From: Methylocystaceae bacterium
GTDB lineage: Bacteria > Pseudomonadota > Alphaproteobacteria > Rhizobiales > Beijerinckiaceae
Direction: 5' to 3'
Assembly (NCBI GenBank): GCA_009773555.1
Contig: WSXZ01000021.1
Location: 574 to 64,573 of the forward strand
DNA: 64,000 bases
In this document: positions 3,243-61,843 of the stretch, in pieces
How the letters are laid out: every line of letters starts with the position of its first letter
How positions within the stretch are numbered: position 1 is the first letter of the stretch
The notes under the pieces: generated by a model
What the model saw: only the letters and a program-made list of their open reading frames with translations
The model's database searches: none
What the model was told of the DNA's origin: nothing
Position numbers and translations under genes: made by a program

Positions 3243-3302
3243 GCGGCGCCTGTCTGTTGGGAGGCCGGCAGCATACTCCCAGATGCGCCGCAGCGCGAGG
3301 GG

Positions 3303-5318: not shown

Positions 5319-5512
5319 GAGCGATCTTAGCGCGATTCGCGACAGCGTGGGTCGGTTCGGCGCAAGCGCATTCGCCTGGCCGACATAGGGAATTCACAAA
5401 AAAGGCAGACGAGGCTTGCGCTTGTCGCACAGGCGACGCTGAGGCATGCTCGCGCCCCGGCTAAATACTCACTTAAGGATTTTTGCTCAACCGAAAAAAT
5501 TGGAGCTCATCC

Positions 5513-7542: not shown

Positions 7543-7602
7543 ACAGCGATAGGAGTGCGGCGAAACGATCATGCGGCGACTGAATTGAGCCTGAGGTTGA
7601 AG

Positions 7603-8340: not shown

Positions 8341-8347
8341 AGGCAAA

Positions 8348-8494
8348 CGTCATGGCCGGGCGAAGACCTTCGTTGGCACACCGAACCGTCATGGCCGGGC
8401 TTGTCCCGGCCATCCACGTGTGGACATTGCCTGCGCCTTGCAACCGTTGCGTAACGTCCCGGCGTGGATGCCCGCGACAAGCGCGGGCATGACG
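8348..8494. repeat. Intergenic hairpin repeat family A: one partial copy plus two inverted units
   Basis: cgtcatggccgggcttgtcccggccatccacg at 8387..8418, and the inverted variant cgtggatgcccgcgacaagcgcgggcatgacg at 8463..8494. The same pair recurs at 22271..22406. Confidence 0.8.
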
Positions 8495-8602
8495 CGGAGA
8501 GTCTGCGTCAGCGGCTTCGGCGGATATAGCCCCGCCTAACGCGACGCATCGACGAGTCGTCGAACCTGCGGTAAGACATTCAGCCAAAACCTCAAGGAAA
8601 AC

Positions 8603-11050: not shown

Positions 11051-11062
11051 GCGTGTCCTGCT

Positions 11063-11740: not shown

Positions 11741-11872
11741 GTCTTATCCACCCGCATTCTGAAATCGATCTCTTATTGCTGGTTCTTAATATAGCGTCGA
11801 TACGGCGCGGGACAGGCTTGCCCAAGGTCATGTGGCGGTGCAGTATTCTCCCCGTTCAAGGGGGCTTTTTTC

Positions 11873-46984: not shown

Positions 46985-47401
46985 ATGGACGACCTCGACC
47001 ACCGACTCATCGCGCTGCTGCGGTCGGACGCGCGGGCTTCTTTATCCCAGCTCGCCAAGGCGCTCGGCGTCTCGCGCGGGACGGTCCAGAACCGACTCGA
47101 CAAGCTCATCGCGTCCGACGTGATCCTGGGCTTTACGGTTCGGCTGAAAAATCCTTCCGCATCCGATCGTATCCGGGCGATCATGATGGTCGAAGTCTCC
47201 GGCAAGAATTCCCGTCGCGTCGCTCAGGCGCTGCGCGGGCTCCCGCAGATCCACACGCTTTACAGCACCAACGGGCCTTTCGACCTCATCGCCGAAATTG
47301 AATGCGCCAATCTCGAGGAATTCGATCGGGTGCTGTCGGGAGTCAGAATGATCGAGGGCATCGCGAGAAGCGAGACGAGTTTACTGCTCGCTCCCGCCTG
47401 A
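46985..47401 (+). CDS. Lrp/AsnC family transcriptional regulator
   Basis: HTH segment LSQLAKALGVSRGTVQNRLDKL plus a C-terminal RAM domain. It is divergent from the OCD operon. Confidence 0.85.
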   Translation: MDDLDHRLIALLRSDARASLSQLAKALGVSRGTVQNRLDKLIASDVILGFTVRLKNPSASDRIRAIMMVEVSGKNSRRVAQALRGLPQIHTLYSTNGPFDLIAEIECANLEEFDRVLSGVRMIEGIARSETSLLLAPA

Positions 47402-47407
47402 GCCTAC

Positions 47408-48847
47408 TCAGTGCAACGCCTGCGCTGCTCTTGAATCGCTGGGAGCCAGCCTCTCGTCCCCCTCCGATGCGCGCGGCAGGAACACGCGCGCGATCAGTCC
47501 GTGGGGTTCGCGGTCGAGCAGAGACACGGATCCGCCGTGGTTCTCAACGAGCGAGCGCACGATAGATAGCCCCAATCCAAATCCGCTGTGCTCGTCAAGG
47601 GTTCGTCCGGGCTGACCGCGAACGAAAGGCTCGAATGCGGTCTGCTTGCTTTCCGCTGACATTCCTGGCCCGTCGTCGATGACGTCGACCTGTATCAGTC
47701 CTTCCGGCCGATCGGTCAGAAGCACGTCCACTGTCTTCGCGTGATGCGTGGCGTTCTCGACGAGATTGGTAAAAATGCGCTGCATGTCGGGGAGCGATCC
47801 GAAAACCATTTGGCGTCCGCCGCCATGGTAGGTCACATGATGCCCAAGGTCGCAGAACTCGTCGGCGACAGTTTGCAGAACGCTGTCGAGATCGACCAGG
47901 GAACAGTCGGATTTGTCGTCTCCCTCGGCGCGCAAATACTGAAGGTTCTTGAACAGCATTGCGTCCATGAGATCGACGTCGCGCATCATCCGCTGCTGAA
48001 GGTTTTGATCTGGCACGAACTCCGTTTTCAGCTTCAAGCGCGTGATGATCGTACGCAAGTCGTGACTCACCGCCGCAAGCACATGGGCGCGCGCGGCGAT
48101 CATCTTGCTGATGCGCGCCTGCATGCGATTGAGCGAGCGGGTCAATTCGCGAACTTCCTGGGGACCTCGCTCCGGGAGCTGCGCTTTCGGATCGACATCG
48201 TTCGGAATCTGCTCAGCATATTTTGCCAGTCGTCGCAGCGGCGCCATGATCGCGTTCAGCGCCCAGAACACGAAGATCGCTGTGAATATGATAAAGGACA
48301 GGGCCGTTCGCGCGCCCTGAGTCAGGATAAACGGTTCGTCATCGGCATGCTGCCAAAGCCATCGCCATATCGAACCGGGAGATTTTTGATGCTCGGCGAT
48401 TGAGACCGTCGCATAGCCGCCCTTATGCAATTCGACAGCGAGGACGCCGTAATCTTCAGGCGTTGAATTGTCGACCTTGAACACGTCTGCGCCGTTCCAC
48501 AACAGCGAGTCGATGTGACGAATTTCATTGTCAAAGGCGAGATCGCCGCCGCCCGTCGAAGAATTCGCCGCCGGAGGGCGCGCCTCCTGAATCTCGATAC
48601 TGGCGTAGGGAACGGCGTGAGAGAGCGCTGAAATGACATTGGCTCTCTCCGAGAGCGGCGCGACGTCCAGAGCGAGGATTATGCTCGCGATGAAATCGCC
48701 TTGATCGACAATGTGCCGCCGGCCGAACACATGGAACATGCCGATCACGATCGTTTGGAATGCGACGATGGACACAAGCATGAGCAGCGTAATCTGCACG
48801 GCCAGTTTGTTGAGCCGGAACCGCCAGGGAACGCGAGTTGAGTTCAT
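47408..48847 (-). CDS. Sensor histidine kinase (two TM helices, HAMP, HisKA, HATPase_c)
   Basis: H-box SHDLRTIITRL, N-box NLVENATHH, G2 box GFGLGLSIV. Confidence 0.85.
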   Translation of the reverse strand: MNSTRVPWRFRLNKLAVQITLLMLVSIVAFQTIVIGMFHVFGRRHIVDQGDFIASIILALDVAPLSERANVISALSHAVPYASIEIQEARPPAANSSTGGGDLAFDNEIRHIDSLLWNGADVFKVDNSTPEDYGVLAVELHKGGYATVSIAEHQKSPGSIWRWLWQHADDEPFILTQGARTALSFIIFTAIFVFWALNAIMAPLRRLAKYAEQIPNDVDPKAQLPERGPQEVRELTRSLNRMQARISKMIAARAHVLAAVSHDLRTIITRLKLKTEFVPDQNLQQRMMRDVDLMDAMLFKNLQYLRAEGDDKSDCSLVDLDSVLQTVADEFCDLGHHVTYHGGGRQMVFGSLPDMQRIFTNLVENATHHAKTVDVLLTDRPEGLIQVDVIDDGPGMSAESKQTAFEPFVRGQPGRTLDEHSGFGLGLSIVRSLVENHGGSVSLLDREPHGLIARVFLPRASEGDERLAPSDSRAAQALH

Positions 48848-49578
48848 GCGCGCGTGACCTGCGTGGAAAAGATATAGCCTTCGGACCGCACGGTCTGGAT
48901 GAACGCGGGCTTTCTCGGATCCGTTTCGATCTTCTGTCGAAGCCGGCTGATCAGGACGTCAATGCTCCGCTCAAAGGGACCGGTCGTTGGGCCATGCGTC
49001 ATGTTGATCAGTTGCTCGCGCGTCAACACCCGATGGGGATTTTCGCACAAAGCATGCAACAGATCGAATTCGGCGCCGGTCATGGCCACCTTTATGCCGC
49101 ACGGCGCGACGACCTCCCGAGCCAGCACGTCGACGCGCCAGCCGGAGAAAAGATACGCTTGCCGCATCGCGCGCCCGTCGACGGCGCTGGGTGTTTCAGT
49201 TCGCCTCAGCACCGCGCGAATGCGCGCCAGCAGCTCGCGCGAATTGAAGGGCTTAACAATGTAGTCGTCGGCCCCGAGCTCCAGCCCCAATATTTTATCG
49301 ATATCCTCCGATTGCGCGGTCAGTATGATTATTGGAATGCGTCTCTCGGCGCGCATACGCCGGCAAATGGAGAATCCGTCTTCGCCGGGAAGATTAAGAT
49401 CCAGTATCAACAGGTCGTAGACGCCGGCGCTGAACGCCGCGTCCATTTCCTTGGCGTTTGCGGCGACCTTCGTCTGAAGGTCGTGACCCGCGAGATAAAG
49501 CGAAATGAACTCGCCGATTTCGGCGTCATCCTCGACGATCAGAATTGAAATGGGAGACGCCACGGGTCGCGCGATCAC
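48844..49578 (-). CDS. OmpR/PhoB-family response regulator
   Basis: Receiver ILIVEDD...LLILDLNLPGEDG and a winged-helix C-terminus IQTVRSEGYIF. It overlaps the kinase gene by 4 bp. Confidence 0.9.
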   Translation of the reverse strand: MIARPVASPISILIVEDDAEIGEFISLYLAGHDLQTKVAANAKEMDAAFSAGVYDLLILDLNLPGEDGFSICRRMRAERRIPIIILTAQSEDIDKILGLELGADDYIVKPFNSRELLARIRAVLRRTETPSAVDGRAMRQAYLFSGWRVDVLAREVVAPCGIKVAMTGAEFDLLHALCENPHRVLTREQLINMTHGPTTGPFERSIDVLISRLRQKIETDPRKPAFIQTVRSEGYIFSTQVTRA

Positions 49579-49610
49579 TTTCGTTGGGAGGAGCGGAAAC
49601 TAATAATGCA

Positions 49611-49628
49611 GTGTTTCTAGAGTGTTTC
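49611..49628. promoter_or_regulatory. Candidate response-regulator binding site: 7-4-7 direct repeat
   Basis: GTGTTTC-TAGA-GTGTTTC with 11-bp periodicity, in the divergent region between the RR/HK operon and the SulP operon. Confidence 0.4.
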
Positions 49629-49820
49629 CATCACAAAAACGATTGCGCCCCGCGACGATTCCGCAGCTCTGTCCGATCTCGTCCGATTTGAGAAAAGAAT
49701 CAGAAACAATCTCCGTGGTCTGAAAAACTGGAGAAACACCACGGCCACTGGTCTGTCCTATGTTGCGACCGCTAAGGGGTGCGCCAAGGTTTCGACTGAG
49801 CGCGATGGCAAGGACACCAT

Positions 49821-51614
49821 ATGAAAAGCAAGGCTCATGCTGTCACCCGCGACCTGGAAGCGGACGCGGTTGAGGCAAGCGCCTCTCAGCGCGCCGGGTC
49901 ATCGGCGCAAGACGAATGGCTGGGCAAGGACCTAGGCGGACCCGCCATGGATGAGAATCGCTCAAATTTCGCAGGGACGATTCCAACCCGGTTCACGCCG
50001 AAAACCGGCCTCGCCGGATTGGCCGAAAATTGGCGCGCCGATATTCTGTCCGGCTTTCTGGTCTTTCTTATCGCGCTGCCGCTCTGCCTCGGCATTTCGA
50101 TGGCCTCCGGCTTTCCGCCGCAGGCGGGCATCATCACCGCCGTCGTTGGCGGCCTGCTGGTGTCACGAATCAATGGCTCCTTCGTCACCATCACCGGACC
50201 GGCGGCGGGCCTCATCGTGGTCATTCTGGACTCGGTGCAGGCGCTCGGCGACGGCGACGCCAAAGCCGGCTACCACTACACCTTAGCCGCGATTGTATGC
50301 GCCAGCGTCATCCAGATGCTGATGGGCGTCATGAAGGCCGGCAAGATGAGCGCCTTTTTTCCGTCCTCGGCCGTGCATGGCATGTTGGCGGCGATCGGCA
50401 TCATCATTATGGCCAAGCAGATCCACGTCATGCTGGGCGTGAAGCCGGATGCGCAGACTCTGTTTGAGACGATCGGCGCAATCCCCGCAAGCATTCGCGA
50501 CATGAATCCAGAAGTGGCGATTATTGGCGGCCTTGGGCTTTTGATCCTGATCGCCTGGTCGCTGGTGAAGAGTCGCCGACTGAAAATGATCCCGGCGCCG
50601 CTCGTCGTCGTGATCATCGGCATGGCGCTCGCGCAATATTACGATCTCGACGATGAACATATCTATCTCTTCCTGCCGGACTATCCGTTTCTGCCGCATC
50701 ACGAATTCACGATCGGTCCGAAGTTTCTTGTCTCGATTCCGCAGAACTTCCTCTCCGGCTTCGCCTTCCCGGATTTCTCGCTGATCGGCTCCAGCATATT
50801 CTGGCAGCAGGTCTTCGCCATCTGTCTCGTCGGCAGCCTGGAGAGCCTGCTCAGCTCGGCGGCGGTCGATAAGCTCGACCCTTGTAAGCGCACCTCGGAT
50901 CTCAACCGCGACCTCGCGGCGGTCGGCTTCGGCAACATCATCTGCGGCCTGATTGGCGGTCTGCCGATGATCGCAGAAATCGTCCGCAGCTCCGCCAATG
51001 TGAATAATGGCGCGCGCACAGGATGGGCGAATTTCTTCCATGGATTGTTCCTGCTGATCTTCGTCGCCCTCTTCCCGAGGGTCATTCACGAGATCCCGCT
51101 CGCCGCGCTTGCCGCGCTGCTGGTGTTCACCGGCTACCGACTCGCGTCGCCGCTCGAGTTCAAGAAGACGCTGGCGATCGGCTGGGACCAGCTCACCGTT
51201 TTCGTGATCACCATCGTCGGCGTGCTGGCGACCGACCTGCTGATCGGCGTCGCCATCGGCATCGCCGCCGAGTTCCTGTTCCACTTCTGGCGCAGCGTCA
51301 ATTGGGGACAGATCTTCAAGCTGCATCGCGACATCGTGGAGATCGAGCCCGGCGTCTACGAGGTCAAGATCGGCGGCGCCGCGTTTTTCGCCAATTACCT
51401 CGCGCTCAAGGGCGATCTCGTGAAGCTCCCGAAGGGCAAGAAGATCATCTTTGATCTCTCAGAGTCCTGGTGCGTCGATCATACGGTGATGGAGAACCTC
51501 CATCACTTTTGCGAGGACTATGAAGCAAACGGCGGCCGCGCAGAGATTTGCGGACTGGATCAACACGTCGCGACGTCAAAGCATCCCCTCGCCCCGCGCA
51601 AGCGCAGCGTCTAG
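49821..51614 (+). CDS. SulP family inorganic anion transporter with C-terminal STAS domain
   Basis: ~12 hydrophobic segments and a SulP-like N-terminal region LAENWRADILSGFLVFLIALPLCLGISMASG. The C-terminal STAS-like domain reads KIIFDLSESWCVDHTVMENL. Confidence 0.85.
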   Translation: MKSKAHAVTRDLEADAVEASASQRAGSSAQDEWLGKDLGGPAMDENRSNFAGTIPTRFTPKTGLAGLAENWRADILSGFLVFLIALPLCLGISMASGFPPQAGIITAVVGGLLVSRINGSFVTITGPAAGLIVVILDSVQALGDGDAKAGYHYTLAAIVCASVIQMLMGVMKAGKMSAFFPSSAVHGMLAAIGIIIMAKQIHVMLGVKPDAQTLFETIGAIPASIRDMNPEVAIIGGLGLLILIAWSLVKSRRLKMIPAPLVVVIIGMALAQYYDLDDEHIYLFLPDYPFLPHHEFTIGPKFLVSIPQNFLSGFAFPDFSLIGSSIFWQQVFAICLVGSLESLLSSAAVDKLDPCKRTSDLNRDLAAVGFGNIICGLIGGLPMIAEIVRSSANVNNGARTGWANFFHGLFLLIFVALFPRVIHEIPLAALAALLVFTGYRLASPLEFKKTLAIGWDQLTVFVITIVGVLATDLLIGVAIGIAAEFLFHFWRSVNWGQIFKLHRDIVEIEPGVYEVKIGGAAFFANYLALKGDLVKLPKGKKIIFDLSESWCVDHTVMENLHHFCEDYEANGGRAEICGLDQHVATSKHPLAPRKRSV

Positions 51615-51674
51615 TCCGTAAAGTTCACGCAGGGCGCGACCGACGACCGTCGCGTCGAATCGAAGGTGACACGT

Positions 51675-53672
51675 ATGCCGCTCTACCTGGCGCTGACCTC
51701 TGTCAGCGCCCTGCTCGCCGTCGGCGTCTACGCCATCGTCGACAGGCGGAACCATGACGTCAGCCGCAACGTCTACCGCCTGTGCATCGGCCTCTGCGGC
51801 GTCATCTTTCTCGCAGCGGTCATGCCAAGGGGCGCTCATGTCGTTTCCACGACTTTGCCGCTCGGGCTGCCGTGGATCGGCATGCATTTTCGCATCGACG
51901 TCCTGACCGCCTTTTTCCTCGCCGTCGTCAATCTGGGCGGCGCGGCGGCGAGCGCCTATGCGATCGGCTATGGCGCGCATGAGAAGGAGCCGATGCGCGT
52001 GCTGCCGTTCTATCCAGCCTTTCTCGCTGGCATGAACCTCGTCGTGCTGGCCGACGACGCCTTCACCTTTCTCGTCGCTTGGGAGTTCATGTCGCTTGCG
52101 TCATGGGCGCTCGTGCTGACGCATCATCATGAGGAGGAGAACAGGCGCGCCGGCTTCGTCTATCTGTTGATGGCGAGCTTCGGCGGGTTTGCGCTGTTGA
52201 TGGCGTTCGGCGTTCTCGGCGGCGTCGGCGGCGCCTATGACTTCGCCTCGATTCGCGAGTCGACTAAGGCGGGCTGGACCTCGGGCCTCGTCCTGGCCCT
52301 CGCGTTAATCGGCATGGGGTCGAAAGCCGGACTCGCGCCCCTGCATATCTGGTTGCCGCTCGCCCATCCCGCGGCGCCGAGCCATGTCTCGGCCCTGATG
52401 AGCGGCGTTATGACGAAGGTCGCCGTCTACGGCTTCATTCGCGTCGTGTTCGACTTGCTCGGGCCGCCGGCCTTCTGGTGGTCGGTCGAGCCGATGACCT
52501 TTGGCGCGGCGAGCGCCCTCATCGGCGTTCTCTTCGCGACGATTCAGAGCGATTTGAAGAAGCTGCTCGCCTACAGCACTATCGAAAACATTGGCGTCAT
52601 TTTCATCGCGCTCGGACTCGCCTTGGCGTTCAAGGCCAATGGCATGGCGCTGCCGGCCGCGCTCGCCTTCACGGCGGCGCTCTTTCACGTTTTCAATCAT
52701 TCGCTGTTCAAGAGCCTGCTGTTCTTTGGCGCCGGCGCGGTATTGAATGCGAGCGGCGAAAGAAGCATCGAGCGGCTCGGCGGTCTTATCCACGCCATGC
52801 CGAAAACGGCGTTCCTTTTTCTCGGCGGCTGCGTCGCCATCGCCGCCCTACCGCCGCTGAACGGTTTCGTCTCGGAATGGCTGGTCTTTCAGGCGATCCT
52901 GCTGAGCCCGGCGCTGCCGCAATGGACAGTGAAGCTCCTCGTTCCGGCGGTCGGCGTGGCGCTGGCGCTGAGCGCGGCGCTCGGCGCCGGCTGTTACATA
53001 CGCGCCTATGGCGTCGCTTTTCTGGGGCGTCCCCGCAGCGAAGCGGCGCGCAGGGCGCACGACCCGGATCGCTGGTCGCTCGGCGCTATGGCGGTTTTGC
53101 TGACGCTGTGCCTCATCGCCGGTCTGCTGCCGAGCCTCCTCATCGACACGATCTCACCCGTGGCGAAGGATTTTGTCGGCGCCCGCATGCCGACGCAGGC
53201 CGAACTCTCCTGGCTCTCGATCGCGCCGATCGCCGAAAGCCGCAGCTCCTATAATGGGCTTCTGGTCTTCCTGTTCATTCTCTTCTCCGCCTATTCGGCG
53301 AGATGGGTCATCCACAAATTTGGCGCGACGCGGTCGCGGCGCGCGCCGGCGTGGGACTGCGGCTACATCGAAGCCAGCCCCATGACCCAATACACCGGCA
53401 GCAGCTTCGCGCAGCCGATCCGGCGCACCCTTGGCGTCATCGCCTTTTCGGTGCAAGAGCGCCTCGACATGCCGGCGCCCGGCGATACGCGGGCCGCGCG
53501 CCTCAGCGTCGACATCAAGGATCGAATCTTCGACTATCTCTATGCGCCGCTCACGCGGGCGGTGGAATCTTGCGCCGAGCGGCTGAACGTCCTCAGTCTT
53601 ATGACGATCCAGGAATATCTCGCGCTCGTTTTCGCCGCGCTCGTCTTCCTCCTGGTGCTGGTGGCGATATGA
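51675..53672 (+). CDS. HyfB/NuoL-like antiporter-type membrane subunit
   Basis: ~665 aa and polytopic, with a proton-pumping-subunit-like core (WEFMSLASWALV, LPLAHPAAPSHVSALMSG). GAAGG lies 8 nt upstream of the ATG. Confidence 0.85.
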   Translation: MPLYLALTSVSALLAVGVYAIVDRRNHDVSRNVYRLCIGLCGVIFLAAVMPRGAHVVSTTLPLGLPWIGMHFRIDVLTAFFLAVVNLGGAAASAYAIGYGAHEKEPMRVLPFYPAFLAGMNLVVLADDAFTFLVAWEFMSLASWALVLTHHHEEENRRAGFVYLLMASFGGFALLMAFGVLGGVGGAYDFASIRESTKAGWTSGLVLALALIGMGSKAGLAPLHIWLPLAHPAAPSHVSALMSGVMTKVAVYGFIRVVFDLLGPPAFWWSVEPMTFGAASALIGVLFATIQSDLKKLLAYSTIENIGVIFIALGLALAFKANGMALPAALAFTAALFHVFNHSLFKSLLFFGAGAVLNASGERSIERLGGLIHAMPKTAFLFLGGCVAIAALPPLNGFVSEWLVFQAILLSPALPQWTVKLLVPAVGVALALSAALGAGCYIRAYGVAFLGRPRSEAARRAHDPDRWSLGAMAVLLTLCLIAGLLPSLLIDTISPVAKDFVGARMPTQAELSWLSIAPIAESRSSYNGLLVFLFILFSAYSARWVIHKFGATRSRRAPAWDCGYIEASPMTQYTGSSFAQPIRRTLGVIAFSVQERLDMPAPGDTRAARLSVDIKDRIFDYLYAPLTRAVESCAERLNVLSLMTIQEYLALVFAALVFLLVLVAI

Positions 53673-54622
53673 CCCTTCTTTTCAACCTTATGGCGCAGAG
53701 CCTTCAAATGCTTTTGGTGCTTGCGCTGGCGCCGCTGCTGATCGGCTTCGTTCGAAAGCTGAAAGCGCGTCTCTTGCGCCGTACAGGGCCGCCGATCATT
53801 CAGCCCTGGCTCGATCTCATTCGGCTGCTGCGCAAGGAGGTCGTCCTCGCGGACAACGCATCGTGGCTGTATCGCGCCGCGCCCTATCTGATCTTTGCGA
53901 TGATCTGGGTCGCCGCATCGCTGGTGCCGACATTCGCCACCGGACTGACGTTCAGCTGGTCGGCCGATCTCATCGCCATCATCGCCCTGCTCGGCAGCGC
54001 CCGTTTCTTCCTTGCTCTCGCCGGCATGGACATTGGAACGAGTTTTGGCGGCATCGGCTCCAGCCGCGAGGCGATGTTCGGCTCGCTCGCCGAGCCGGCG
54101 ATGATGATGATCGTCTTCACCGTCTCCTTCGTCGCCGGAACGACGCAGCTCTCTGAAATTGCGGCCTATATGGCCGGAAATCTGGAATTGCGCGCCTCCG
54201 TCGGCATGGCGCTCGTCGCGCTCCTCATCGTCGCCATCGCAGAGAATGGTCGGATTCCCGTCGACAATCCGGCGACCCATCTCGAGCTGACGATGGTGCA
54301 TGAAGCGATGGTTCTCGAATATTCCGGGCGCTATCTCGCGCTCATTGAACTCGCCTCCGCGCTCAAACTGCTCCTTTATCTCTCGCTCATCGCCTGCGTC
54401 TTTTTCCCGGTTGGACTAGCGTCGCATGATGCGGGCGTGGAGGCGATGATGATCGGGCTTTGCGCTTACATCCTCAAGCTGGCGATCGGCGGCGGCGCGC
54501 TCGCGCTGTTTGAGACATCGACCGCCAAGATGCGCATCTTCCGCGTGCCGGACTTTCTCGGCGCCGGGCTGATGCTCGGCCTCCTCGCGACGCTGCTCGT
54601 TTTCGTGACACGGAGCCTCTGA
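53669..54622 (+). CDS. HyfC/HycD/NuoH-like membrane subunit
   Basis: ATGA overlap with the upstream gene. The 317-aa polytopic product has a NuoH-like pattern (GPPIIQPWLDLIRLLRKE). Confidence 0.85.
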   Translation: MTLLFNLMAQSLQMLLVLALAPLLIGFVRKLKARLLRRTGPPIIQPWLDLIRLLRKEVVLADNASWLYRAAPYLIFAMIWVAASLVPTFATGLTFSWSADLIAIIALLGSARFFLALAGMDIGTSFGGIGSSREAMFGSLAEPAMMMIVFTVSFVAGTTQLSEIAAYMAGNLELRASVGMALVALLIVAIAENGRIPVDNPATHLELTMVHEAMVLEYSGRYLALIELASALKLLLYLSLIACVFFPVGLASHDAGVEAMMIGLCAYILKLAIGGGALALFETSTAKMRIFRVPDFLGAGLMLGLLATLLVFVTRSL

Positions 54623-55284
54623 TGGAGCTTCTGACAATCGACATCGCCCATGTGCTCGCGGGTGCGCTCCTGCTGACGAGCTTCATGCTGCTGTATCAGG
54701 ACAGACTGTCGGGGCTGATCAATATCTACACGCTCCACGCCGTCATTCTGTCGCTGTCGGTCGCCTGGCAGGCCTATTACCAGGACGCGCCGCACCTCTA
54801 TTTCACAGCTTGCATCGCGGCGGTCTTCAAGGCGCTAATCATTCCCTTCAGCCTTCGCCGCATCATCAAGCGCTTGCGCATCCACCGCACCGTGGAGGTC
54901 GTTGGCGGCGTCGGCATAACCATGCTCATCGGCATATTTCTCGTGGCGCTGTCGCTCGTCGTCATGCTGCCGGCGACCGCCTCCGCCGATCCGCTGTCGC
55001 GCGAGGACATCGCATTCGCCTTGGCGATCGTGCTGCTCGGGCTGTTGATGATGGTGACGCGACGCAACGCCGTGAGCCAGATTATCGGTTTCATGTCGCT
55101 GGAAAACGGCTTGATTCTCGCAGCGGCTGGGGCGAACGGCATGCCGCTCGTGGTCGAGATCAGCGTCGCCTTCTCGGTCCTCATCGCCTTCATCGTGATC
55201 GGCATCTTCCTGTTTCGCATCCGCGAGCGATTCGACAATGTCGACCTTTCTGAACTCGATCGCGTGCGCGGAGGACGTTCATGA
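54622..55284 (+). CDS. HyfE-like (NuoK-related) membrane subunit
   Basis: TGATG overlap with the upstream gene. The product is 220 aa and hydrophobic (GFMSLENGLILAA). Confidence 0.8.
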   Translation: MELLTIDIAHVLAGALLLTSFMLLYQDRLSGLINIYTLHAVILSLSVAWQAYYQDAPHLYFTACIAAVFKALIIPFSLRRIIKRLRIHRTVEVVGGVGITMLIGIFLVALSLVVMLPATASADPLSREDIAFALAIVLLGLLMMVTRRNAVSQIIGFMSLENGLILAAAGANGMPLVVEISVAFSVLIAFIVIGIFLFRIRERFDNVDLSELDRVRGGRS

Positions 55285-56729
55285 GTTCCGATCTCTTGCT
55301 GGTCTCGAACGCGCTTATTGGCATTCCCGCCGCCGCGGCCATTGCGGTCGCGCTTGAACCGGCCTACCGACGCTCGGCGATCATCAATCTCTGCGCCTCC
55401 GGCGCGACGTTTCTCTTCGCGCTTGTGCTTCTCGTCGTCGAGCCCGAAAGCGGTGGCTATCTCTTCGTCGACGACCTCAACATCGTCTTTATTGTGCTCT
55501 CGACCTTCATCGGGTTCACCACGAGCGTCTATAGCGCGAGCTATATCGACCATGAGCTGGAAACTGGCCGGCTGACCACGAGGAACGTGCGCTTCTATCA
55601 CGCGATGTATCAGTCGCTGATGTGCGCGATGAATCTGGCGCTGCTCGCCAGCAACATCGGCCTCATGTGGGTCGCGGTCGAAGTCGCAACCCTGACGACC
55701 GTGTTGATGGTCGGCATGTACCGCACGCCGCACGCGCTTGAGGCCGCTTGGAAATATTTCATCCTTGGCAGCGTCGGGATCGCGCTGGCGCTCTTCGGCA
55801 CGATCCTCATTTACATGGCGGCCGAGCCGGTGCTGGGACAGGGCTACGACGCCATGGTCTGGACGACGCTGATGTCGCAGGCGCCGCAGTTCAATCCGCG
55901 GATGCTCAACGTCGCCTTCGTGTTTCTGATGCTCGGCTACGGCACGAAGGTCGGCCTGGCGCCGATGCACGCCTGGCTGCCGGACGCGCACGCGGAAGGT
56001 CCGACGCCGATCTCGGCGGTCTTGTCCGGCCTCCTGCTGAATGTCGCGCTCTATGCGGTGCTGCGGTTCAAGATGCTGCTGACCGCGAATGCGGCGGCGA
56101 TTACGCCGGGCCCGCTGATGATCACGCTCGGCCTTGCATCGCTCATCATGGCAGCCTTCATGCTCTACCGCCGCGGCGACATCAAGCGGCTGTTTGCTTA
56201 CTCCTCCATCGAGCACATGGGCATCATCGCTTTCGCCTTCGGCATGGGCGGACCGCTCGCCAACTTCGCCGGCCTGCTGCACATGACGATGCACAGCCTG
56301 ACGAAGTCCGCGATCTTCTTCTCGGTCGGCCACATCGCACAGGCCAAGGGCACGCAGAAGATCGCCGACATCAGAGGACTGACGCAGAGCCATCCGGCGC
56401 TGGGCTGGTCTCTCGTCCTCGGCGTCGTGGCGATCATCGGCCTGCCGCCGCTCGGTATCTTCATGAGCGAATTTCTCGTCGTGAGTTCGACCTTCGCGCG
56501 CCAGCCGCTCCTCGCCATTCCGCTGGTTTTCGGCCTGCTGCTGGCTTTTGGCGCCTTGCTGTTGCGGCTCACCGGGATGGCGTTCGGCGAGCCAAGCCGC
56601 GACCACGGCGAGGTGAAGGCTTCGATGTGGCCTGTCTACGCGCATCTCTCGCTTGTGCTGCTCGCCGGAATCTATCTCCCGTCTCACGTCGTGACCTGGT
56701 TCCAGAACGTCGCGCGGCTCTTGGGTTGA
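55281..56729 (+). CDS. HyfF/NuoM-N-like antiporter-type membrane subunit
   Basis: 482 aa with GYGTKVGLAPMHAWLPDAHAEGPTPISAVLSG, typical of the Mrp/Nuo antiporter-like family. GGAGGA Shine-Dalgarno sequence. Confidence 0.85.
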   Translation: MSSDLLLVSNALIGIPAAAAIAVALEPAYRRSAIINLCASGATFLFALVLLVVEPESGGYLFVDDLNIVFIVLSTFIGFTTSVYSASYIDHELETGRLTTRNVRFYHAMYQSLMCAMNLALLASNIGLMWVAVEVATLTTVLMVGMYRTPHALEAAWKYFILGSVGIALALFGTILIYMAAEPVLGQGYDAMVWTTLMSQAPQFNPRMLNVAFVFLMLGYGTKVGLAPMHAWLPDAHAEGPTPISAVLSGLLLNVALYAVLRFKMLLTANAAAITPGPLMITLGLASLIMAAFMLYRRGDIKRLFAYSSIEHMGIIAFAFGMGGPLANFAGLLHMTMHSLTKSAIFFSVGHIAQAKGTQKIADIRGLTQSHPALGWSLVLGVVAIIGLPPLGIFMSEFLVVSSTFARQPLLAIPLVFGLLLAFGALLLRLTGMAFGEPSRDHGEVKASMWPVYAHLSLVLLAGIYLPSHVVTWFQNVARLLG

Positions 56730-56746
56730 GTTCGAAGGATGAAAAG

Positions 56747-58264
56747 ATGAACTTCGCCAGCAAACAAATAGCGGCTCAGCCGTCGCCGCCGACATGTCTG
56801 CCCTGGCCGCGTGAAATCGTCGACCGAGACGGTTGGCTCGCTTTCGCTGAAAGTCTTGCGAAGGGCGCGCGCGAGCTCCTCAGCCTGTGGGGCGAACCTT
56901 CGAGCGTTCACATGGCGGTGCTCGAAGAGCGGGAGCCGCGCCTGCGCATCGTCAGTTTGGAGTGTCCCGAGGGCTCCTTTCCATCCGTCGGGCGATTGCA
57001 TCCGCCGGCGTTGAGACTCGAGCGCGCGATCCGCGATCTTTATGGCCTGCGAGCCGAAAATGCGCCCGACGAGCGGCCCTGGCTCGATCATGGCCGTTGG
57101 GGCGTGCGTCATCCCTGCAGCGACCCCGAAAAGATCGACTCCACCAAAGACAGCTACGCATTCCTTCCCGCCGAAGGCGAACCGCTCCACCAGATACCGG
57201 TCGGACCCGTGCATGCCGGCATTATCGAGCCGGGCCATTTTCGTTTCTCGGCCAATGGCGAAACCGTCGTGCGGCTTGAGGAGCGGTTTGGCTTCGTGCA
57301 CAAGGGCGTCGATCAACTGATGGCCGGCGCCTCGATCGAGCGCGCCGCGCGTTTGGTGGCGCGCGTGTCCGGCGACAGCACGGTCGCCTACAGCCTCGCC
57401 TTTGCGCAGGCGGTCGAGGCGGCGTTCGACGTCAATGTTCCGCCGCGCGCGACATATCTGCGCGCGCTGATGGCCGAACTGGAACGAATCGCCAATTATT
57501 TCGGCGATATCGGCGCCATCTGCAACGACGCGGCCTTCGCATTGATGCATGCGCAATGCGGCATCGTCCGCGAACGCATCTTGAGAGAAGCGGCAAGTTG
57601 CTTCGGACACCGCCTGATGATGGATCGCATCGCGCCGGGAGGCGTTGTCGTCGATCTGGAGCGAGAGAACGTCACGGCGCTGTTCACGCTGATCGAGTGG
57701 ATCGAGCTGATGACTCCGCGCCTGATCGCGCTCTTTGGCGACACGACGTCGCTGCAGGATCGGACCGTCGGGACAGGATACGTCAGTGAGGCGCTCGCAA
57801 AGCAATATGCGTGCGGAGGCTATGTCGGCCGCGCCTCCGGCCGGACGTTCGACGCGCGCAAGGCGATCGGTTACGCCCCCTATCCGCAACTGACCTTCGA
57901 GATCGGCTGCTCCAAGGAAGGCGACGTCGATGCGCGCGTATGGGTCCGCTTCGACGAAATCAAAGCCTCGCTGAGACTCCTCAGACAAATTCTCGACGAA
58001 ATGCCGGAGGGACCGATCATCGCCGCCTGGGCGCTGCCGGAAGACTGGACGCGCGAAGGCGCGGCGCTCGTCGAAGGATTCCGCGGCGACATCTTCGTTT
58101 GGCTGCGCATGCGCGCTGACGGCGTGGTGCAGCGCTGCCATTTGCGCGATCCGTCCTGGTTCCAATGGCCGCTGCTCGAAGCGGCGATCAAGGACAACAT
58201 CGTCGCCGACTTCCCGCTCTGCAACAAATCCTTCAACTGCTCCTACTCGGGGCACGATCTCTAG
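56747..58264 (+). CDS. HyfG/HycE/NuoCD-like 'large subunit' lacking Ni-Fe ligand cysteines
   Basis: VGPVHAGIIEPGHFRF is conserved. The N-terminal CGxC site reads ARVSGDSTVAYS, and the C-terminal DPCxxC site reads SFNCSYSGHDL. Confidence 0.85.
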   Translation: MNFASKQIAAQPSPPTCLPWPREIVDRDGWLAFAESLAKGARELLSLWGEPSSVHMAVLEEREPRLRIVSLECPEGSFPSVGRLHPPALRLERAIRDLYGLRAENAPDERPWLDHGRWGVRHPCSDPEKIDSTKDSYAFLPAEGEPLHQIPVGPVHAGIIEPGHFRFSANGETVVRLEERFGFVHKGVDQLMAGASIERAARLVARVSGDSTVAYSLAFAQAVEAAFDVNVPPRATYLRALMAELERIANYFGDIGAICNDAAFALMHAQCGIVRERILREAASCFGHRLMMDRIAPGGVVVDLERENVTALFTLIEWIELMTPRLIALFGDTTSLQDRTVGTGYVSEALAKQYACGGYVGRASGRTFDARKAIGYAPYPQLTFEIGCSKEGDVDARVWVRFDEIKASLRLLRQILDEMPEGPIIAAWALPEDWTREGAALVEGFRGDIFVWLRMRADGVVQRCHLRDPSWFQWPLLEAAIKDNIVADFPLCNKSFNCSYSGHDL

Positions 58265-58276
58265 GACGCGCGCACG

Positions 58277-58792
58277 ATGCAGAAATTCTTGCTTCAAGGC
58301 CTGCTTCGGCGCGCTCTGACCGAACAGGCTCCCATTCCGAACCCGACGTCGATCGCGGAACTTGGCTACACGCTCGGCCGGACGGCGCGCCAGAAACTGG
58401 GACGCAGCCTGTCGATCCGCGAAGTCGACGCGGGGTCCTGCAATGGCTGCGAACTGGAAATACATGCGCTCAACAACGCCTATTACGATCTCGAAAGGTT
58501 CGGCCTGCGTTTTGTCGCGTCGCCGCGCCATGCCGACGTCTTGCTCGTCACCGGTCCGGTGACGAAAAACATGCGCGAAGCGCTCGAGCGAACCTATGCG
58601 GCGACGCCCGATCCAAAATGGGTGATCGCCGTCGGCGACTGCGCCTTCGACGGCGGCGTTTATTGCGAGAGCTATGCATGCGTTGGCGGCGTCGCCAACG
58701 TCGTCCCTGTCGATCTCCATATTCGCGGCTGCCCGCCTGATCCCACAACGCTGCTCAAAGGATTGATCGCCTTCGTCGACACGATGAGCTGA
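58277..58792 (+). CDS. HyfI/HycG/NuoB-like small subunit (4Fe-4S)
   Basis: Cluster ligands are retained: GSCNGCELE, GDCA, GCPP. Confidence 0.85.
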   Translation: MQKFLLQGLLRRALTEQAPIPNPTSIAELGYTLGRTARQKLGRSLSIREVDAGSCNGCELEIHALNNAYYDLERFGLRFVASPRHADVLLVTGPVTKNMREALERTYAATPDPKWVIAVGDCAFDGGVYCESYACVGGVANVVPVDLHIRGCPPDPTTLLKGLIAFVDTMS

Positions 58793-58817
58793 ACGACGCC
58801 AGCGCGTCCGATGGGAG

Positions 58818-58854
58818 ATGGCCGCCGCCTGAAACATGGTGGCGGCCATTTTTG
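58818..58854 (+). terminator. Rho-independent terminator ending the SulP/Hyf-like operon
   Basis: 12-bp stem atggccgccgcc / ggtggcggccat with an 8-nt loop, followed by TTTT. Confidence 0.8.
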
Positions 58855-59049
58855 CGAAACGCACGAGCAATGTTTCCACGCCCGGAGATAAATTCGGGAA
58901 AAACCTGCATACGAAAACTTGGCTAGAACGAGAGGCGCTTCGCGCTTCGCACACGGAGTCGCGTCGGTCCACGTGATGAACTTGCTGTCTTGATTTGCGG
59001 CGCAAAGCGCGCGCCGCTCACGCGAATGAAGACGCAAGCGAGGCTGATC

Positions 59050-60798
59050 ATGAATCTCCCAGGCTGGAAGCATGTCGCGGCAAGCGGGCTTGTCGCGGTT
59101 CTCTCGACAACAGCGGCGCATGCGGCGTCAAGCGACGCCATCGAAGCAAGGCTGCGCACCCTGGAGGCGGAGATCGCAAAACTGCGGCGAGAGGCTCGTC
59201 AGGCGAAGGCGGAAGCCCAGCAGGCGACTCAGTCCGCTCAACGAAGCGCGGCGAAGGCCGAGGCGGCGCAATCCGCGACGCCGCTGATGCCGCCGGTTTT
59301 CGTCGCATTCAGGAACGGATTGTTCGTCGAGAGCGCGGACAAAGCCTACAGTTTCAAGATCGGCGGACGCATGCAGTTCGACGGCGGCGGCGCGGCGCAA
59401 CCGCTCAATGGCTGGTCAGGCCAGGCCGGCGTTCGGCAGGTGCGTCTCGAAGTCGAGGGCAAGGCTGCAAAATACTGGTTCTACAAACTGCAATATGATT
59501 TCGCCGGCTCGCAATATGGCACGCCCTTCAATGCGCCCGTGCAAGGCGGCATTCGCGACTTCTATCTTGGTCTGCAGCATCCCCTGCTCGCGCTGCCTTT
59601 TACGAAGGAGCCGGCGTTCATCCATATCGGCAGCTATTTCGAACCCTTCAGCCTGGAGTTCACGGCTTCTTCGCGTTTCCGTGATTTCATCGAACGCGCG
59701 ATGGCGGTCGAAGCCATTGCGCCCAGTCGTCACCTTGGCGCGGCGATCGGCGCCTATGGCGACAACTGGACGGCGAAAGGCGGCATCTTCACGACAAGCT
59801 TCGAGGATTTGAACACGAATCCCGTCGTCAGCACGCCGCCGTTGATCGGCATTCCGGCGCGCGCCGGTTGGGTCCCAACGGGCGGCGGGCAATATTTCGA
59901 ACTGACCGGCCGCGCGACCTACGCGCCGATCATGACCGAGCATGATCTCCTGCATGTCGGCGTCTCGGGCCGCTATCACCAGCCAAACAGCGCCACGGGA
60001 TTATCCGACGATCGCGTGCTGCGGATCGGCAACCGCATTCGCTCGGAAGCCTATATGCTCAATCAGGGGCTGCTTGGCACGCCGGATCTTTCCTGCGGAA
60101 CCGTCGCTCTACCGGGATGGACGTCGGCGGCCGCGGCGCATTGCGTCAACAACGTGCAGTCCTTTGGCGTGGAGCTGTCCGCGGCGCATGGGCCGTTCTC
60201 GCTGCAGGCCGAATATCTGGGGCAGCAGGTCAATCGCAACACCACCAATATCGCGCTCGCGCGCGTCGCAGGCGCTTTCGCGCCTGGCGGCGCTTCGCAT
60301 TATTTCAGCGGCTTTTATCTCTACGGGCAATGGTATCTGACCGGCGAAGAGCGCGCCGCCGCATATGACGTGACGAACAAACTCGGCGCGAACTTCAATC
60401 AGATCGCGATCAAGCATCCGATGAGCGCGGGCGGCTTTGGCGCACTTGGGCTCGCCGTGCGCTACAGCGCGCTCAATCTCAACAGCGGACCCTATAGCGG
60501 CTCAAGCCTGTACAACATGCTCGCCTATACGACGCTCATCGCGCCCAATCCCGCGGCCGCGTCTTACATCGGCAACGCGGGCGTTGTCGGCGGTCGCCAG
60601 CAAAACGTCACTCTGGGACTGAATTGGTATCCCGACAATGGAATCCACTTTCAGTTCAACTGGGTCCATGTGCTGCAGGCCTCCGCGCCGTTCAATGATT
60701 ACGCTTTGTACGCCACTGGCGTTCCGGCGCGGCAAGGGCCGTATTTCAACGGCGCCCATCCCGATCTCTTCGAGGCGCGCGCGCAGGTCTATTGGTAG
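59050..60798 (+). CDS. OprO/OprP-family (phosphate/anion-selective) porin with N-terminal coiled coil
   Basis: Signal peptide ...STTAAHAAS and the coiled coil IEARLRTLEAEIAKLRREARQAKAEAQQ. Beta-barrel-like alternating pattern, ending in an aromatic residue (QVYW). Confidence 0.75.
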   Translation: MNLPGWKHVAASGLVAVLSTTAAHAASSDAIEARLRTLEAEIAKLRREARQAKAEAQQATQSAQRSAAKAEAAQSATPLMPPVFVAFRNGLFVESADKAYSFKIGGRMQFDGGGAAQPLNGWSGQAGVRQVRLEVEGKAAKYWFYKLQYDFAGSQYGTPFNAPVQGGIRDFYLGLQHPLLALPFTKEPAFIHIGSYFEPFSLEFTASSRFRDFIERAMAVEAIAPSRHLGAAIGAYGDNWTAKGGIFTTSFEDLNTNPVVSTPPLIGIPARAGWVPTGGGQYFELTGRATYAPIMTEHDLLHVGVSGRYHQPNSATGLSDDRVLRIGNRIRSEAYMLNQGLLGTPDLSCGTVALPGWTSAAAAHCVNNVQSFGVELSAAHGPFSLQAEYLGQQVNRNTTNIALARVAGAFAPGGASHYFSGFYLYGQWYLTGEERAAAYDVTNKLGANFNQIAIKHPMSAGGFGALGLAVRYSALNLNSGPYSGSSLYNMLAYTTLIAPNPAAASYIGNAGVVGGRQQNVTLGLNWYPDNGIHFQFNWVHVLQASAPFNDYALYATGVPARQGPYFNGAHPDLFEARAQVYW

Positions 60799-60859
60799 GC
60801 GATCCGCGGACGAGGGACACGGTTCTCATGTCTGCAAAGGAAGGGCGTTTCCATGCGCT

Positions 60860-61843
60860 TCATTGTTCGAAAGCCCATATCCGATTCCAATCGCTTTTCA
60901 TGCTGGTGACAAACCATCCTTGCCGCTTCGCCTCGTCATACAAAGACTGAGGGGCGTATTCGCGCTTGGGGTCGTCGTGCAAAACCAACATGCCAAACCG
61001 CGCGCCATCCCCCGACGTCGTATATTCGAGCATCTGCCGGTCGCCCGTTGAGTTCCCGAATGCAGCGCGCGGCCGACGACCGATCATCAAATGGATGGCC
61101 TCGGGCTTGCCGGCGTCGACGTCGCTGAGCAGCGTTTCGGCGCTCTCGATCAGAACGGGACGCCCACGCTTGTCATAACGATAGCTTACGCTCTCCAGAG
61201 TCCCGACAACCTGCTCGGGCGGAACGCCATAGGTCTGCTCTGCATAGACTCGCACGAAATCCTGCCCGCCTCCGGTGACGATGTAGGTCTTATAGCCGTT
61301 GGCCCGCAGATGCTTCATCAGCTCGAGCATCGGCAGATATGTCAGTTCGGTGTAGCGGCGGCCCCAGCGCGGGTGTTTCGCAGTCTCAAGCCATTGCTCC
61401 GCGTCGGCTCTAAACCGCTCTACGCTCATGCCGCTGAGCGGCGCGGCCATGATCTTGATGAGGTCCTTCGTGGGAAGCTTCGATATCGCCTCCATGTTGC
61501 GAGAGAGCGCTGTCTTGAAGGGCTCGATCTTTGCAAGCGCCGGTCTTGCCTTTACGACGGCAGGCAGGCGATCCAGACAATACATCAACTGCGGGTATAT
61601 CGGATGGGACGCCCAGAGCGTGCCATCCTGATCGAAGACCGCGATACGCTCCTCGGGGGGGACGAATTTCGTACTGGATGGATCAGTCGTCGCTCGAATG
61701 AATTCGACGATTGCATGTTTAGCCGGACCTTCGTTCCATGACGGAAGCGGATCGCTTCCCGCTCTGACAGATGATCCCGACAGCAGGAATGTTGTGGCCA
61801 TCACAGCGATAAGGAAGCTCAATCGAACCAGCGCTTTCATCAT
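60860..61843 (-). CDS. Secreted HAD-superfamily hydrolase
   Basis: Signal peptide MMKALVRLSFLIAVMATTFLLSGSSVRA and HAD motif I FDQDGTLW. Confidence 0.7.
   Translation of the reverse strand: MMKALVRLSFLIAVMATTFLLSGSSVRAGSDPLPSWNEGPAKHAIVEFIRATTDPSSTKFVPPEERIAVFDQDGTLWASHPIYPQLMYCLDRLPAVVKARPALAKIEPFKTALSRNMEAISKLPTKDLIKIMAAPLSGMSVERFRADAEQWLETAKHPRWGRRYTELTYLPMLELMKHLRANGYKTYIVTGGGQDFVRVYAEQTYGVPPEQVVGTLESVSYRYDKRGRPVLIESAETLLSDVDAGKPEAIHLMIGRRPRAAFGNSTGDRQMLEYTTSGDGARFGMLVLHDDPKREYAPQSLYDEAKRQGWFVTSMKSDWNRIWAFEQ

Follow-up and report, generated by a model that had tools for sequence, protein, structure and literature searches.

Complexes of the Ehr class (for energy-converting-hydrogenase-related) are described in the literature as homologues of the group 4 [NiFe]-hydrogenases that lack the CxxC Ni-Fe ligands, lie near group 4f and are excluded from the hydrogenases, and their function is unknown. 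HydDB was trained to leave them out, and in one study such Cys-less proteins were called "group 4f" in the preprint and renamed Ehr in the published paper. In Geobacter sulfurreducens, EhrA-D/L/S are encoded by GSU0739-45, with a NuoL-like EhrA and a HyfE-like EhrC, and all subunits are most abundant on formate; Ehr has also been described in Nitrospira, in ammonia-oxidising archaea and in Mycobacterium tuberculosis (Rv0081-87, also given as Rv0082-Rv0087). Here, we analyze a related locus in a 64-kb stretch of Methylocystaceae DNA (contig WSXZ01000021.1, positions 574 to 64,573; "the window" denotes this whole stretch of 64,000 nucleotides), in which a cassette of six genes, designated EhrA-D, EhrL (large subunit) and EhrS (small subunit), very probably encodes a six-subunit Ehr complex and not a hydrogenase. 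Neither the Ehr class nor its lack of Ni-Fe ligands is new, and the complex in the window is a Methylocystis-lineage member of it.

Judging from the published descriptions, the Ehr of Geobacter, Nitrospira, archaea and M. tuberculosis share with the window both the subunit set and the Cys-less large subunit, and Ehr clusters elsewhere are often mis-annotated as formate hydrogenlyase or hydrogenase 4, as is also the case here. Compared with other Ehr, the cassette of the window is an alphaproteobacterial, methanotroph-lineage member, whose large subunit has a tyrosine (Y215) where most Ehr have a histidine and carries the extra residues C492, C498 and His503. It further differs from them in its Methylocystis-specific neighbours, which are a SulP transporter, a two-component system and an OprP-like porin.

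The large subunit lacks all four Ni-Fe ligands

The large subunit and the motifs around its former active site are located as follows.

56747..58264, + strand: EhrL, large subunit of 505 amino acids, a NuoC (30 kDa)-NuoD (49 kDa) fusion of the HycE/HyfG type
57200..57247, + strand: beta1-beta2 loop VGPVHAGIIEPGHFRF (residues 152-167), in which H156 corresponds to HycE H188 and E161 to HycE E193
57362..57391, + strand: former L1 motif R206-V-S208-G-D210-S211-T-V-A-Y215, which reads R-x-C-G-x-C-x3-H in hydrogenases
58208..58261, + strand: former L2 motif D488-F-P-L-C492-N-K-S-F-N497-C498-S499-Y-S-G502-H-D-L505, the true C-terminus of the protein

The ATG start of EhrL is preceded by an AAGGA ribosome-binding site 8 nt upstream. 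Pfam assigns to it a NuoC-like 30-kDa domain (PF00329) and a NuoD-like 49-kDa domain (PF00346, 9e-39), while the match to PF00374, the family of nickel-dependent hydrogenase large subunits, stays below threshold. Among PDB sequences searched with phmmer, the top match is HycE of the Escherichia coli formate hydrogenlyase (FHL; 7z0s_E, E=2e-47), followed by Pyrococcus furiosus MbhL (1e-30) and complex I Nqo4/NDUFS2 (~1e-27). In the alignment with HycE (residues numbered as in UniProt; the numbering of the PDB chain is shifted by 12), RVCGICGFAH pairs with RVSGDSTVAY (R206-Y215) and DPCYSC with NCSYSG (N497-G502). In other words, the Ni-Fe ligands C241, C244, C531 and C534 of HycE fall on S208, S211, S499 and G502, and none of the four cysteines is left. 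Neither the hydrogenase L1 pattern R-x-C-G-x-C-x3-H nor the L2 pattern [DE]-[PL]-C-x-x-C is found in EhrL, C498 lying beside and not at a ligand position. In addition, EhrL stops three residues past G502 (H-D-L-stop), without the C-terminal extension that is cleaved by a maturation endopeptidase.

An earlier reading of the window, made from the sequence alone, had proposed that the N-terminal cysteine pair is replaced by serines. The segment it quoted, ARVSGDSTVAYSLAFAQAVE, indeed forms residues 205-224 of the translation, the flanking signature is found as it was quoted, and the careful alignment on which the proposal hung places a cysteine at no ligand position. For the C-terminus, SFNCSYSGHDL-stop (residues 495-505), that reading was right about serine and glycine at the ligand positions; in place of its single displaced cysteine there are two conserved non-ligand cysteines, C492 and C498. 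Because all four thiolate ligands are gone, EhrL, as judged from its sequence, is unable to bind a [NiFe] centre and is no hydrogenase. In several public records of EhrL relatives (P0011, P0022, P0041, P0055, P0067), the protein is wrongly named "hydrogenase expression protein HypE".

Conservation of the replaced site

We aligned 82 large subunits of the clade, which share ~60% identity overall. In the former L1 motif, S208, G209, D210 and S211 are each found in 82/82 sequences, R206 in 81/82 and Y215 in 80/82. At the C-terminus, S499 and G502 are likewise found in all 82, and the stretch from D488 to L505 has 11 invariant positions out of 18, the remainder being conserved in at least 94%. The non-ligand cysteines C492 (58220-58222) and C498 (58238-58240) are each kept in 81 members of this alphaproteobacterial clade and His503 in 77 of the 82. 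In distant Cys-less relatives, C492 is mostly replaced by Ile and C498 mostly by Leu, and the position of His503 is variable. A Cys2-His-Asp site like that of beta-carbonic anhydrases, built from C492, C498, H503 and D504, was considered and rejected, since C498 and H503 are not kept outside the alphaproteobacterial clade.

For distant relatives, the C-terminal motifs were read from the raw last 12 residues of the representatives and then re-aligned in a filtered set of 51 sequences. Of the full-length proteins in the top 150 representatives, most have the motif R-x-S-G-D-[ST] together with a terminal K-S-F-N-[LC]-S-Y-[SA]-G-x-D-L, and this holds for identities as low as 34%. Seven representatives carry C-G-x-C and K-S-F-E-L-C-Y-[SA]-C-x-D-R instead and are real hydrogenases; these Cys-bearing proteins are monophyletic in a midpoint-rooted neighbour-joining tree and share 31-34% identity with the EhrL of the window. 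Measured against three relatives, all six genes of the cassette had dN/dS values within 0.02-0.16; the large subunit gave 0.12-0.15, its five companions 0.02-0.14. Going by these alignments, the replaced site is under very strong purifying selection and is not decaying.

The small subunit keeps a hydrogenase-type Fe-S site

58277..58792, + strand: EhrS, small subunit of the NuoB/HycG type, 171 amino acids, Pfam PF01058 (7.5e-34)

EhrS has the ligands of one proximal [4Fe-4S] site, namely C55-x2-C58, C122 (within GDC) and C152 (within GCPP), just as the sequence-only reading had noted for this NuoB-like partner, and these four cysteines are invariant in 79/79 relatives. The protein aligns without gaps to HycG (1e-36) and to MbhJ (5e-36), and it shows the four-Cys proximal cluster pattern of hydrogenases (CxxC...C...CPP). 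Its C55-N-G-C58 motif is of the hydrogenase type, and the tandem Cys-Cys of the complex I cluster N2 is absent.

A six-gene cassette and its distribution

EhrL and EhrS are the last two products of six coupled genes on the + strand, in the order HyfB-like, HycD-like, HyfE-like, HyfF-like, large subunit and small subunit. This order equals that of E. coli hydrogenase 4, hyfB-C-E-F-G-I, minus hyfA, hyfD, hyfH and hyfJ. The four membrane subunits are encoded upstream of EhrL.

51666..53672, + strand: EhrA, antiporter-like subunit of the HyfB type, extended at its C-terminus by an ND3-like part; 832 bits against NCBIfam "hydrogenase 4 subunit B" (cutoff 667)
53669..54622, + strand: EhrB, NuoH/HycD-type membrane anchor; Pfam PF00146; HycD match 3.8e-41
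54622..55284, + strand: EhrC, small membrane subunit resembling HyfE; 1.4e-24 against NCBIfam "hydrogenase 4 membrane subunit", below cutoff; weak PF00420 match
55281..56729, + strand: EhrD, HyfF-type antiporter-like subunit; NCBIfam "hydrogenase 4 subunit F", 841 bits (cutoff 533)

The reading frames of the cassette are intact and translationally coupled, with the ATG of EhrB, for example, overlapping the stop codon of the hyfB-like gene (ATGA); operon boundaries were inferred from gene spacing. In the alignment with HycC, EhrA has charged residues at E140 in transmembrane helix (TM) 5, K220 in TM7, K251 in TM8, H341/H345/K349 in TM11 and E404 in TM12, and its C565 corresponds to the conserved cysteine of the ND3 loop. 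EhrB keeps the E-channel positions R112, E134, E142, E192, E206 and E212. In EhrD, aligned with MbhH, the TM5 Glu, the TM7 Lys, the TM11 His/Lys and the TM12 Glu are present. On these alignments, the coupling and ion-translocation apparatus looks largely intact.

Three long open reading frames (ORFs) overlap the cassette at 54798-56795 (- strand), 56684-59005 (- strand) and 55748-58264 (+ strand), with 665, 773 and 838 codons' worth of amino acids, respectively. They lie on the opposite strand or begin at upstream TTG starts, and we rejected them as genes: their codon-position GC pattern is non-coding, which makes them artefacts of high GC content.

Relatives of the cassette are widespread. 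Among the 8,000 matches listed in a protein search, the closest have 85-95% identity and come from Methylocystis and related metagenome-assembled genomes (MAGs), and an exhaustive search of 1.84 billion cluster representatives returned 1,057 proteins at E<1e-30. In a genome scan with one genome per species, relatives were found at no fewer than 581 places, the best being in Methylocystis silviterrae (94%); other hosts include Mesorhizobium, Ensifer, Rhizobium, Bradyrhizobium, sphingomonads, Competibacter, Lysobacterales and Acidobacteria. For synteny counts we used 80 related loci (L001-L080), searched by tblastn with the window proteins; short contigs were uninformative. The six-gene cassette is found with its order unchanged in every one of the 80 loci that has enough flank. 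It is also carried by Rhizobium megaplasmids, where the genes are annotated hyfB, NuoH, hydrogenase-4 E, hydrogenase 4 F, NuoC and NuoB family; a search of the literature on the cassette in rhizobia yielded no relevant account. Across the 80 loci, the membrane subunits have 70-80% identity and the large subunit 60-65%, and the small subunit is also more conserved than the large one, although the former active-site motifs of the latter do not vary.

Outside the closest Methylocystis relatives, the sole recurrent neighbour is a helix-turn-helix (HTH) regulator of ~105 amino acids, whose gene directly precedes the hyfB-like one (upstream, same strand) in 25/80 loci (e.g., L004 4544-4864). It is also found at L081 3584-3898, and on R. 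johnstonii pRlX2 its annotation reads HTH transcriptional regulator; it has no counterpart in the window. When the flanks of the 80 loci were searched for a conserved electron-donor gene, no formate dehydrogenase, NuoEF, ferredoxin or carbon monoxide dehydrogenase gene was found.

An intact second large subunit accompanied by hyp genes would have undercut the sequence-only reading, by offering another partner for the membrane subunits. None was found in the window or beside the membrane genes of the 80 loci; the one locus with a second large subunit, L014, holds a second cassette that is also Cys-less. In this betaproteobacterial MAG, two Ehr cassettes stand in tandem (309-4508 and 5094-11884), and the second large subunit is 42% identical. 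In another MAG (L033 2891-6848), the hyfB-like gene is duplicated. Within the window itself, neither a second large subunit nor a hyp gene nor a ferredoxin-type subunit turned up in Pfam scans and regular-expression searches. In six frames of the 64 kb, neither R-x-C-[GS]-x-C-x3-H nor [DE]-[PL]-C-x2-C occurs in a real reading frame, and the ferredoxin-type CxxCxxCxxxCP of NuoI/HycF occurs in no frame at all.

Pocket residues, proton relay and structure model

With residue roles taken from the described FHL structure, we compared the surroundings of the former active site. HycE H188 is kept as H156, the proton donor E193 as E161 in the beta1-beta2 loop and the canopy Arg R478 as R446, and the relay Arg and Glu, R395 and E437, are kept as R362 and E404. 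The canopy Ser is replaced by Asn250, as in complex I. The position that follows differs in the window from all close relatives.

57497..57499, + strand: Tyr251 (TAT), aligned with the proton-pathway histidine H284 of HycE; the change is unique to the window

A histidine stands at position 251 in 81/81 clade relatives, in 43/44 distant Cys-less relatives and in 7/7 Cys-bearing hydrogenases. Tyr251 results from a single C-to-T change at 57497, where related transcriptome and metatranscriptome contigs (runs X1, X5 and X12) all read C; H251Y is either a strain-specific change or an assembly error.

An AlphaFold2 monomer model of EhrL, built from a 38-sequence alignment, had a mean predicted local distance difference test score (pLDDT) of 70.6. 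When this model was used as a Foldseek query, HycE was returned first (template modelling score 0.79, ~26% identity), followed by E. coli NuoCD (0.74 for NuoD). No Ehr structure was present among the PDB matches, the closest solved relative being HycE.

Comparison with hydrogenase 4, MBS and complex I

E. coli hydrogenases 4 and 3 (HyfBCEFGI; HycE/HycG, 7z0s) are the best match in both sequence and fold, and their gene order is shared. Common to them and the window are the NuoC-NuoD fusion, the beta1-beta2 Glu, the canopy Arg, the relay Arg/Glu, the CxxC cluster and the Cys of the ND3-like extension. Unlike the E. coli systems, the cassette has no Ni-Fe ligands, no cleavage extension, no HyfA/HycB, no HyfH/HycF, no HyfD, no protease and no FdhF, and it has Asn at the position of the canopy Asp. 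EhrA, on the other hand, keeps the TM7 Lys that E. coli HycC has lost.

The P. furiosus MBS complex (formerly Mbx, 6u8y) resembles the cassette in being a group 4 relative that no longer makes H2, with two antiporter-like subunits and three-loop coupling. In MbsL, two of the four cysteines remain and the beta1-beta2 Glu is missing, whereas EhrL has none of the four and has the Glu; MbsJ has a three-Cys cluster with a motif three residues shorter, whereas the four-Cys motif of EhrS aligns gap-free to MbhJ. Moreover, MBS has a NuoI-like, ferredoxin-accepting MbsN and the Mrp-type Na+ module MbsA-G, neither of which is found in the cassette, which has four membrane genes only. An identity as an MBS/Mbx sulfane-sulfur reductase was therefore rejected, as the Cys pattern, the Mrp module and MbsN all disagree.

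With the Q-module of complex I/NDH-1, the cassette shares the loss of the four ligands, the NuoC-NuoD fusion (as in E. coli), a single N2-equivalent cluster by the pocket, and the NuoH-like and antiporter-like partners. It differs in having no Tyr87/His38 ligands, in its CxxC instead of Cys-Cys, and in the absence of NuoI, of NuoEFG and of separate NuoA and NuoJ. Indeed, at the positions of the quinone head-group ligands His38 and Tyr87 of Nqo4, EhrL has Ile160 and Gly209, both in 82/82 clade members, and no 2x[4Fe-4S] protein of the NuoI type was found by motif search in the window, nor do the cassettes of the 80 loci contain a gene for one.

These comparisons bear on the class assignment. 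EhrL is a group 4 large-subunit homologue without Ni-Fe cysteines; its operon holds EhrA-D plus L and S (with NuoL/HyfB-like, NuoH-like, HyfE-like and second antiporter-like members); and the large subunit is devoid of complex-I quinone residues (G209 at Nqo4 Y87, I160 at H38). The lack of quinone-binding residues is reportedly part of the definition of Ehr, said to be that of Marreiros et al. 2013. In the neighbour-joining tree of the library representatives, the Cys-less ones separate from the Cys-bearing ones. The sequence-only reading had taken the module for a redox or conformational coupling unit "closer to complex I or Mbx/Ehr" than to a hydrogenase. This reading is supported, and its Ehr part is right: the genes present, the disappearance of every Ni-Fe ligand and the missing quinone-site residues all agree with that class. 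Its complex I part needs qualifying: EhrL matches HycE better than NuoD both in sequence (2e-47 against ~1e-27) and in fold (0.79 against 0.74), and the loop Glu and the CxxC are kept. The Mbx/MBS part does not fit, considering that MBS keeps 2/4 Cys and has a three-Cys proximal cluster.

The Methylocystis orthologue and its induction at pH 5

A recent preprint (bioRxiv 10.1101/2025.08.29.672306) uses HydDB to classify the Methylocystis orthologue as a "group 4f [NiFe]-hydrogenase (Ehf)" and reports it in 38/40 Methylocystis genomes. The supplement states "Active site contains [NiFe] cofactor", while the main text is silent on cysteine. In M. sumavensis, the orthologue was induced at pH 5 (log2 fold change +4.2-4.5) alongside a pair of formate dehydrogenases, with no H2 being detected. 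The genus-specific motif given there is PLHQIPVGP...ANGExVVRL...AARVS. Its first two parts are found exactly in the window and AARVS matches save for its first residue, close relatives having AARVS; the cluster of the preprint is thus, on the strength of these motifs, almost certainly orthologous to the cassette of the window.

The "group 4f" label conflicts with the sequence, since the true group 4 relatives among the representatives, which are 31-34% identical, have C-G-x-C and C-Y-[SA]-C and fall into a clade of their own. We attribute the absence of H2 in M. sumavensis to the loss of the Ni-Fe ligands, and on account of this loss the cluster should be relabelled Ehr.

Possible signs of expression closer to the window come from assembled contigs. 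A near-identical sequence is present in sediment metatranscriptome assemblies (contigs only, with flat depth, so that DNA carry-over is possible), and the transcriptome assembly of a related strain spans 47000-58930 (again a contig only, for which DNA carry-over is possible).

Surroundings of the cassette in the window

The genes next to the cassette include a transporter, a porin and a divergent pair of regulators.

47408-48847 and 48844-49578, - strand: histidine kinase and OmpR-type response regulator, a divergent two-component system (ORF-based)
49821..51614, + strand: SulP/STAS anion transporter, Pfam PF00916 plus STAS, 51 nt upstream of the cassette
58990..60798, + strand: OprO/P-type anion-selective porin downstream of the cassette, Pfam PF07396 (4e-37)

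The SulP protein scores below every NCBIfam cutoff. Among the 80 loci, SulP stands beside the cassette in no more than three close Methylocystis relatives (L001, L003 and L005), L002 having a partial copy; the two-component system is syntenic in L001, L003 and L005, and the OprO/P-like porin is near the cassette in L001-L003 and L007 only. The two-component system is a candidate, lineage-specific regulator of the cassette, and together with SulP and the porin it may form a lineage-specific, acid-responsive anion-handling island. A scan of 49300-61100 for promoters and terminators turned up nothing promoter-like, and sites resembling terminators did not exceed their frequency in shuffled sequence. 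Pfam scans of 30 further ORFs of the window returned unrelated genes only, e.g., gyrB/parE-like, pheS, pheT, a sigma factor and prs.

Functional interpretation

The best explanation overall, and one that we consider likely, is that EhrL and EhrS are the large and small subunits of a six-subunit Ehr complex. The near-invariant pocket, the kept relay and antiporter residues and the induction at pH 5 together argue that the replaced site is functional. A specific redox-driven ion-pump mechanism can be sketched, which we put forward tentatively, at somewhat less than an even chance. Some soluble partner would reduce and re-oxidise the single [4Fe-4S] cluster of EhrS, and formate-derived reductant is a candidate electron source, because Ehr rises with formate metabolism in both Geobacter and Methylocystis. 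The polar EhrL pocket (S208, D210, S211, N497, S499 and E161, fed by R446, R362 and E404) would serve as a redox-linked proton-loading site. The beta1-beta2, ND1 and ND3 loops would then relay the change in protonation to both antiporter-like subunits, whose task would be the transport of H+ (or Na+) across the membrane. For Methylocystis, the likeliest role would be proton extrusion and pH homeostasis under acid stress, because the orthologue is induced at acid pH. A more doubtful part of this picture is that the pair S-G-D-S and N-x-S-Y-S-G-x-D-L forms a redox-linked proton-loading site of a new kind, free of metal or with a metal other than Ni.

Several observations weigh against this explanation. 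The analysis revealed no electron donor, acceptor or substrate, and there is no NuoI-like subunit to feed the single cluster. The canopy Asp (HycE D529), strict in hydrogenases and complex I, is Asn497 clade-wide. In the membrane arm, the ND1 loop of EhrB has A202 and H204 in place of two Glu that are important in HycD (EhrB also lacks the Tyr of the HycC interface), and EhrD has Asn at the TM8 Lys position. The copy in the window could itself be impaired through H251Y. Both former active-site elements, residues 112-185 and 474-505, have a pLDDT of <50 in the model. Finally, the acid-induction data come from a different Methylocystis species and from a preprint.

The main rival, which we hold to be unlikely, is a redox-independent Mrp-like cation/proton antiporter, in which the L/S cap is structural or is a redox/pH sensor that gates transport. 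Such a device would go without a donor/acceptor module or a NuoI-type cluster chain, as is the case here; its membrane subunits (70-80% identity over the 80 loci) are more conserved than the large subunit (60-65%) and are closely related to Mrp A/D, and a response to pH stress fits ion homeostasis. Yet with Fe-S cysteines kept in 79/79 relatives, the donor Glu and canopy Arg in place and a polar pocket that does not vary, the L/S pair exceeds the needs of a passive cap. Mrp typically responds to alkaline or sodium stress, whereas induction here occurred at acid pH, with Mrp itself not induced, and the co-induced formate dehydrogenases point to electron input. Another rival is a minimal complex-I-like donor:quinone oxidoreductase, with the pocket turned into a quinone site. 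The loss of the four ligands as in complex I/NDH-1, the NuoH-like subunit and three coupling loops, the hosts being aerobes that use quinones, and published speculation on other Ehr that mentions quinone all speak for it. We nevertheless regard it as improbable, given Gly209 at Nqo4 Tyr87 and Ile160 at His38 in 82/82, CxxC instead of Cys-Cys, and a sequence and fold nearer HycE and MbhL, proteins with a narrower chamber opening than complex I or MBS.

The position of SulP 51 nt upstream and of the porin downstream, syntenic in the closest relatives, raises the idea that cassette, SulP and OprP-like porin together energise the handling of an anion (bicarbonate, CO2 or formate), like NDH-1/Cup or DAB. 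In keeping with this, the preprint counts "seven" induced hydrogenase-related genes and has SulP and OprP in a figure legend, and C492/C498/H503/D504 are clade-conserved near the C-terminus. In all other lineages, however, the cassette has neither SulP nor the porin nor the two-component system around it; C498 and H503 are not kept in the wider family, no carbonic-anhydrase-like gene is found and SulP is below the NCBIfam cutoffs, so that we deem this idea very improbable. More improbable again is a functional group 4f [NiFe]-hydrogenase (Ehf) in which formate oxidation is coupled to the evolution of H2, in spite of the HydDB-based classification and the [NiFe] cofactor named in the supplement of the preprint, the best PDB and fold match to HycE, the NCBIfam names hydrogenase 4 B and F, and Methylocystis genomes reported to have maturation genes for another hydrogenase. 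The four thiolate ligands are absent in 82/82 clade members and the canopy Asp is Asn; the cassette has no HycF/HyfH, HycB/HyfA or formate dehydrogenase gene; the preprint itself saw no H2; and the literature excludes Ehr from hydrogenases, an earlier "group 4f" label having been changed to Ehr. As for a decaying hydrogenase relic drifting to pseudogenes, which the lost catalytic ligands and the window-only H251Y at an invariant His could suggest, we give it next to no credence. The low dN/dS, the intact coupled frames, replaced positions invariant in 82 sequences and motifs that recur to ~34% identity, as well as relatives at 581 places or more and an orthologue that is strongly induced, refute it at the level of the family.

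Implications

What the locus adds to the known Ehr class is a near-invariant replacement motif, kept proton-relay and antiporter residues, and a conflict with the "group 4f hydrogenase" label in methanotrophs. Inferences on hydrogen metabolism that were drawn from this gene in methanotrophs, rhizobia and related MAGs need revision. Methylocystis offers a cultivable aerobe in which the function of Ehr could be tackled by genetics and biochemistry. If the proposed mechanism is true, Ehr, which has six subunits and one cluster and does without NuoI, would be the smallest known redox-driven ion pump of the complex I type; it would serve aerobes like Methylocystis for proton extrusion in acid, and it would provide a stripped-down model of complex I coupling.

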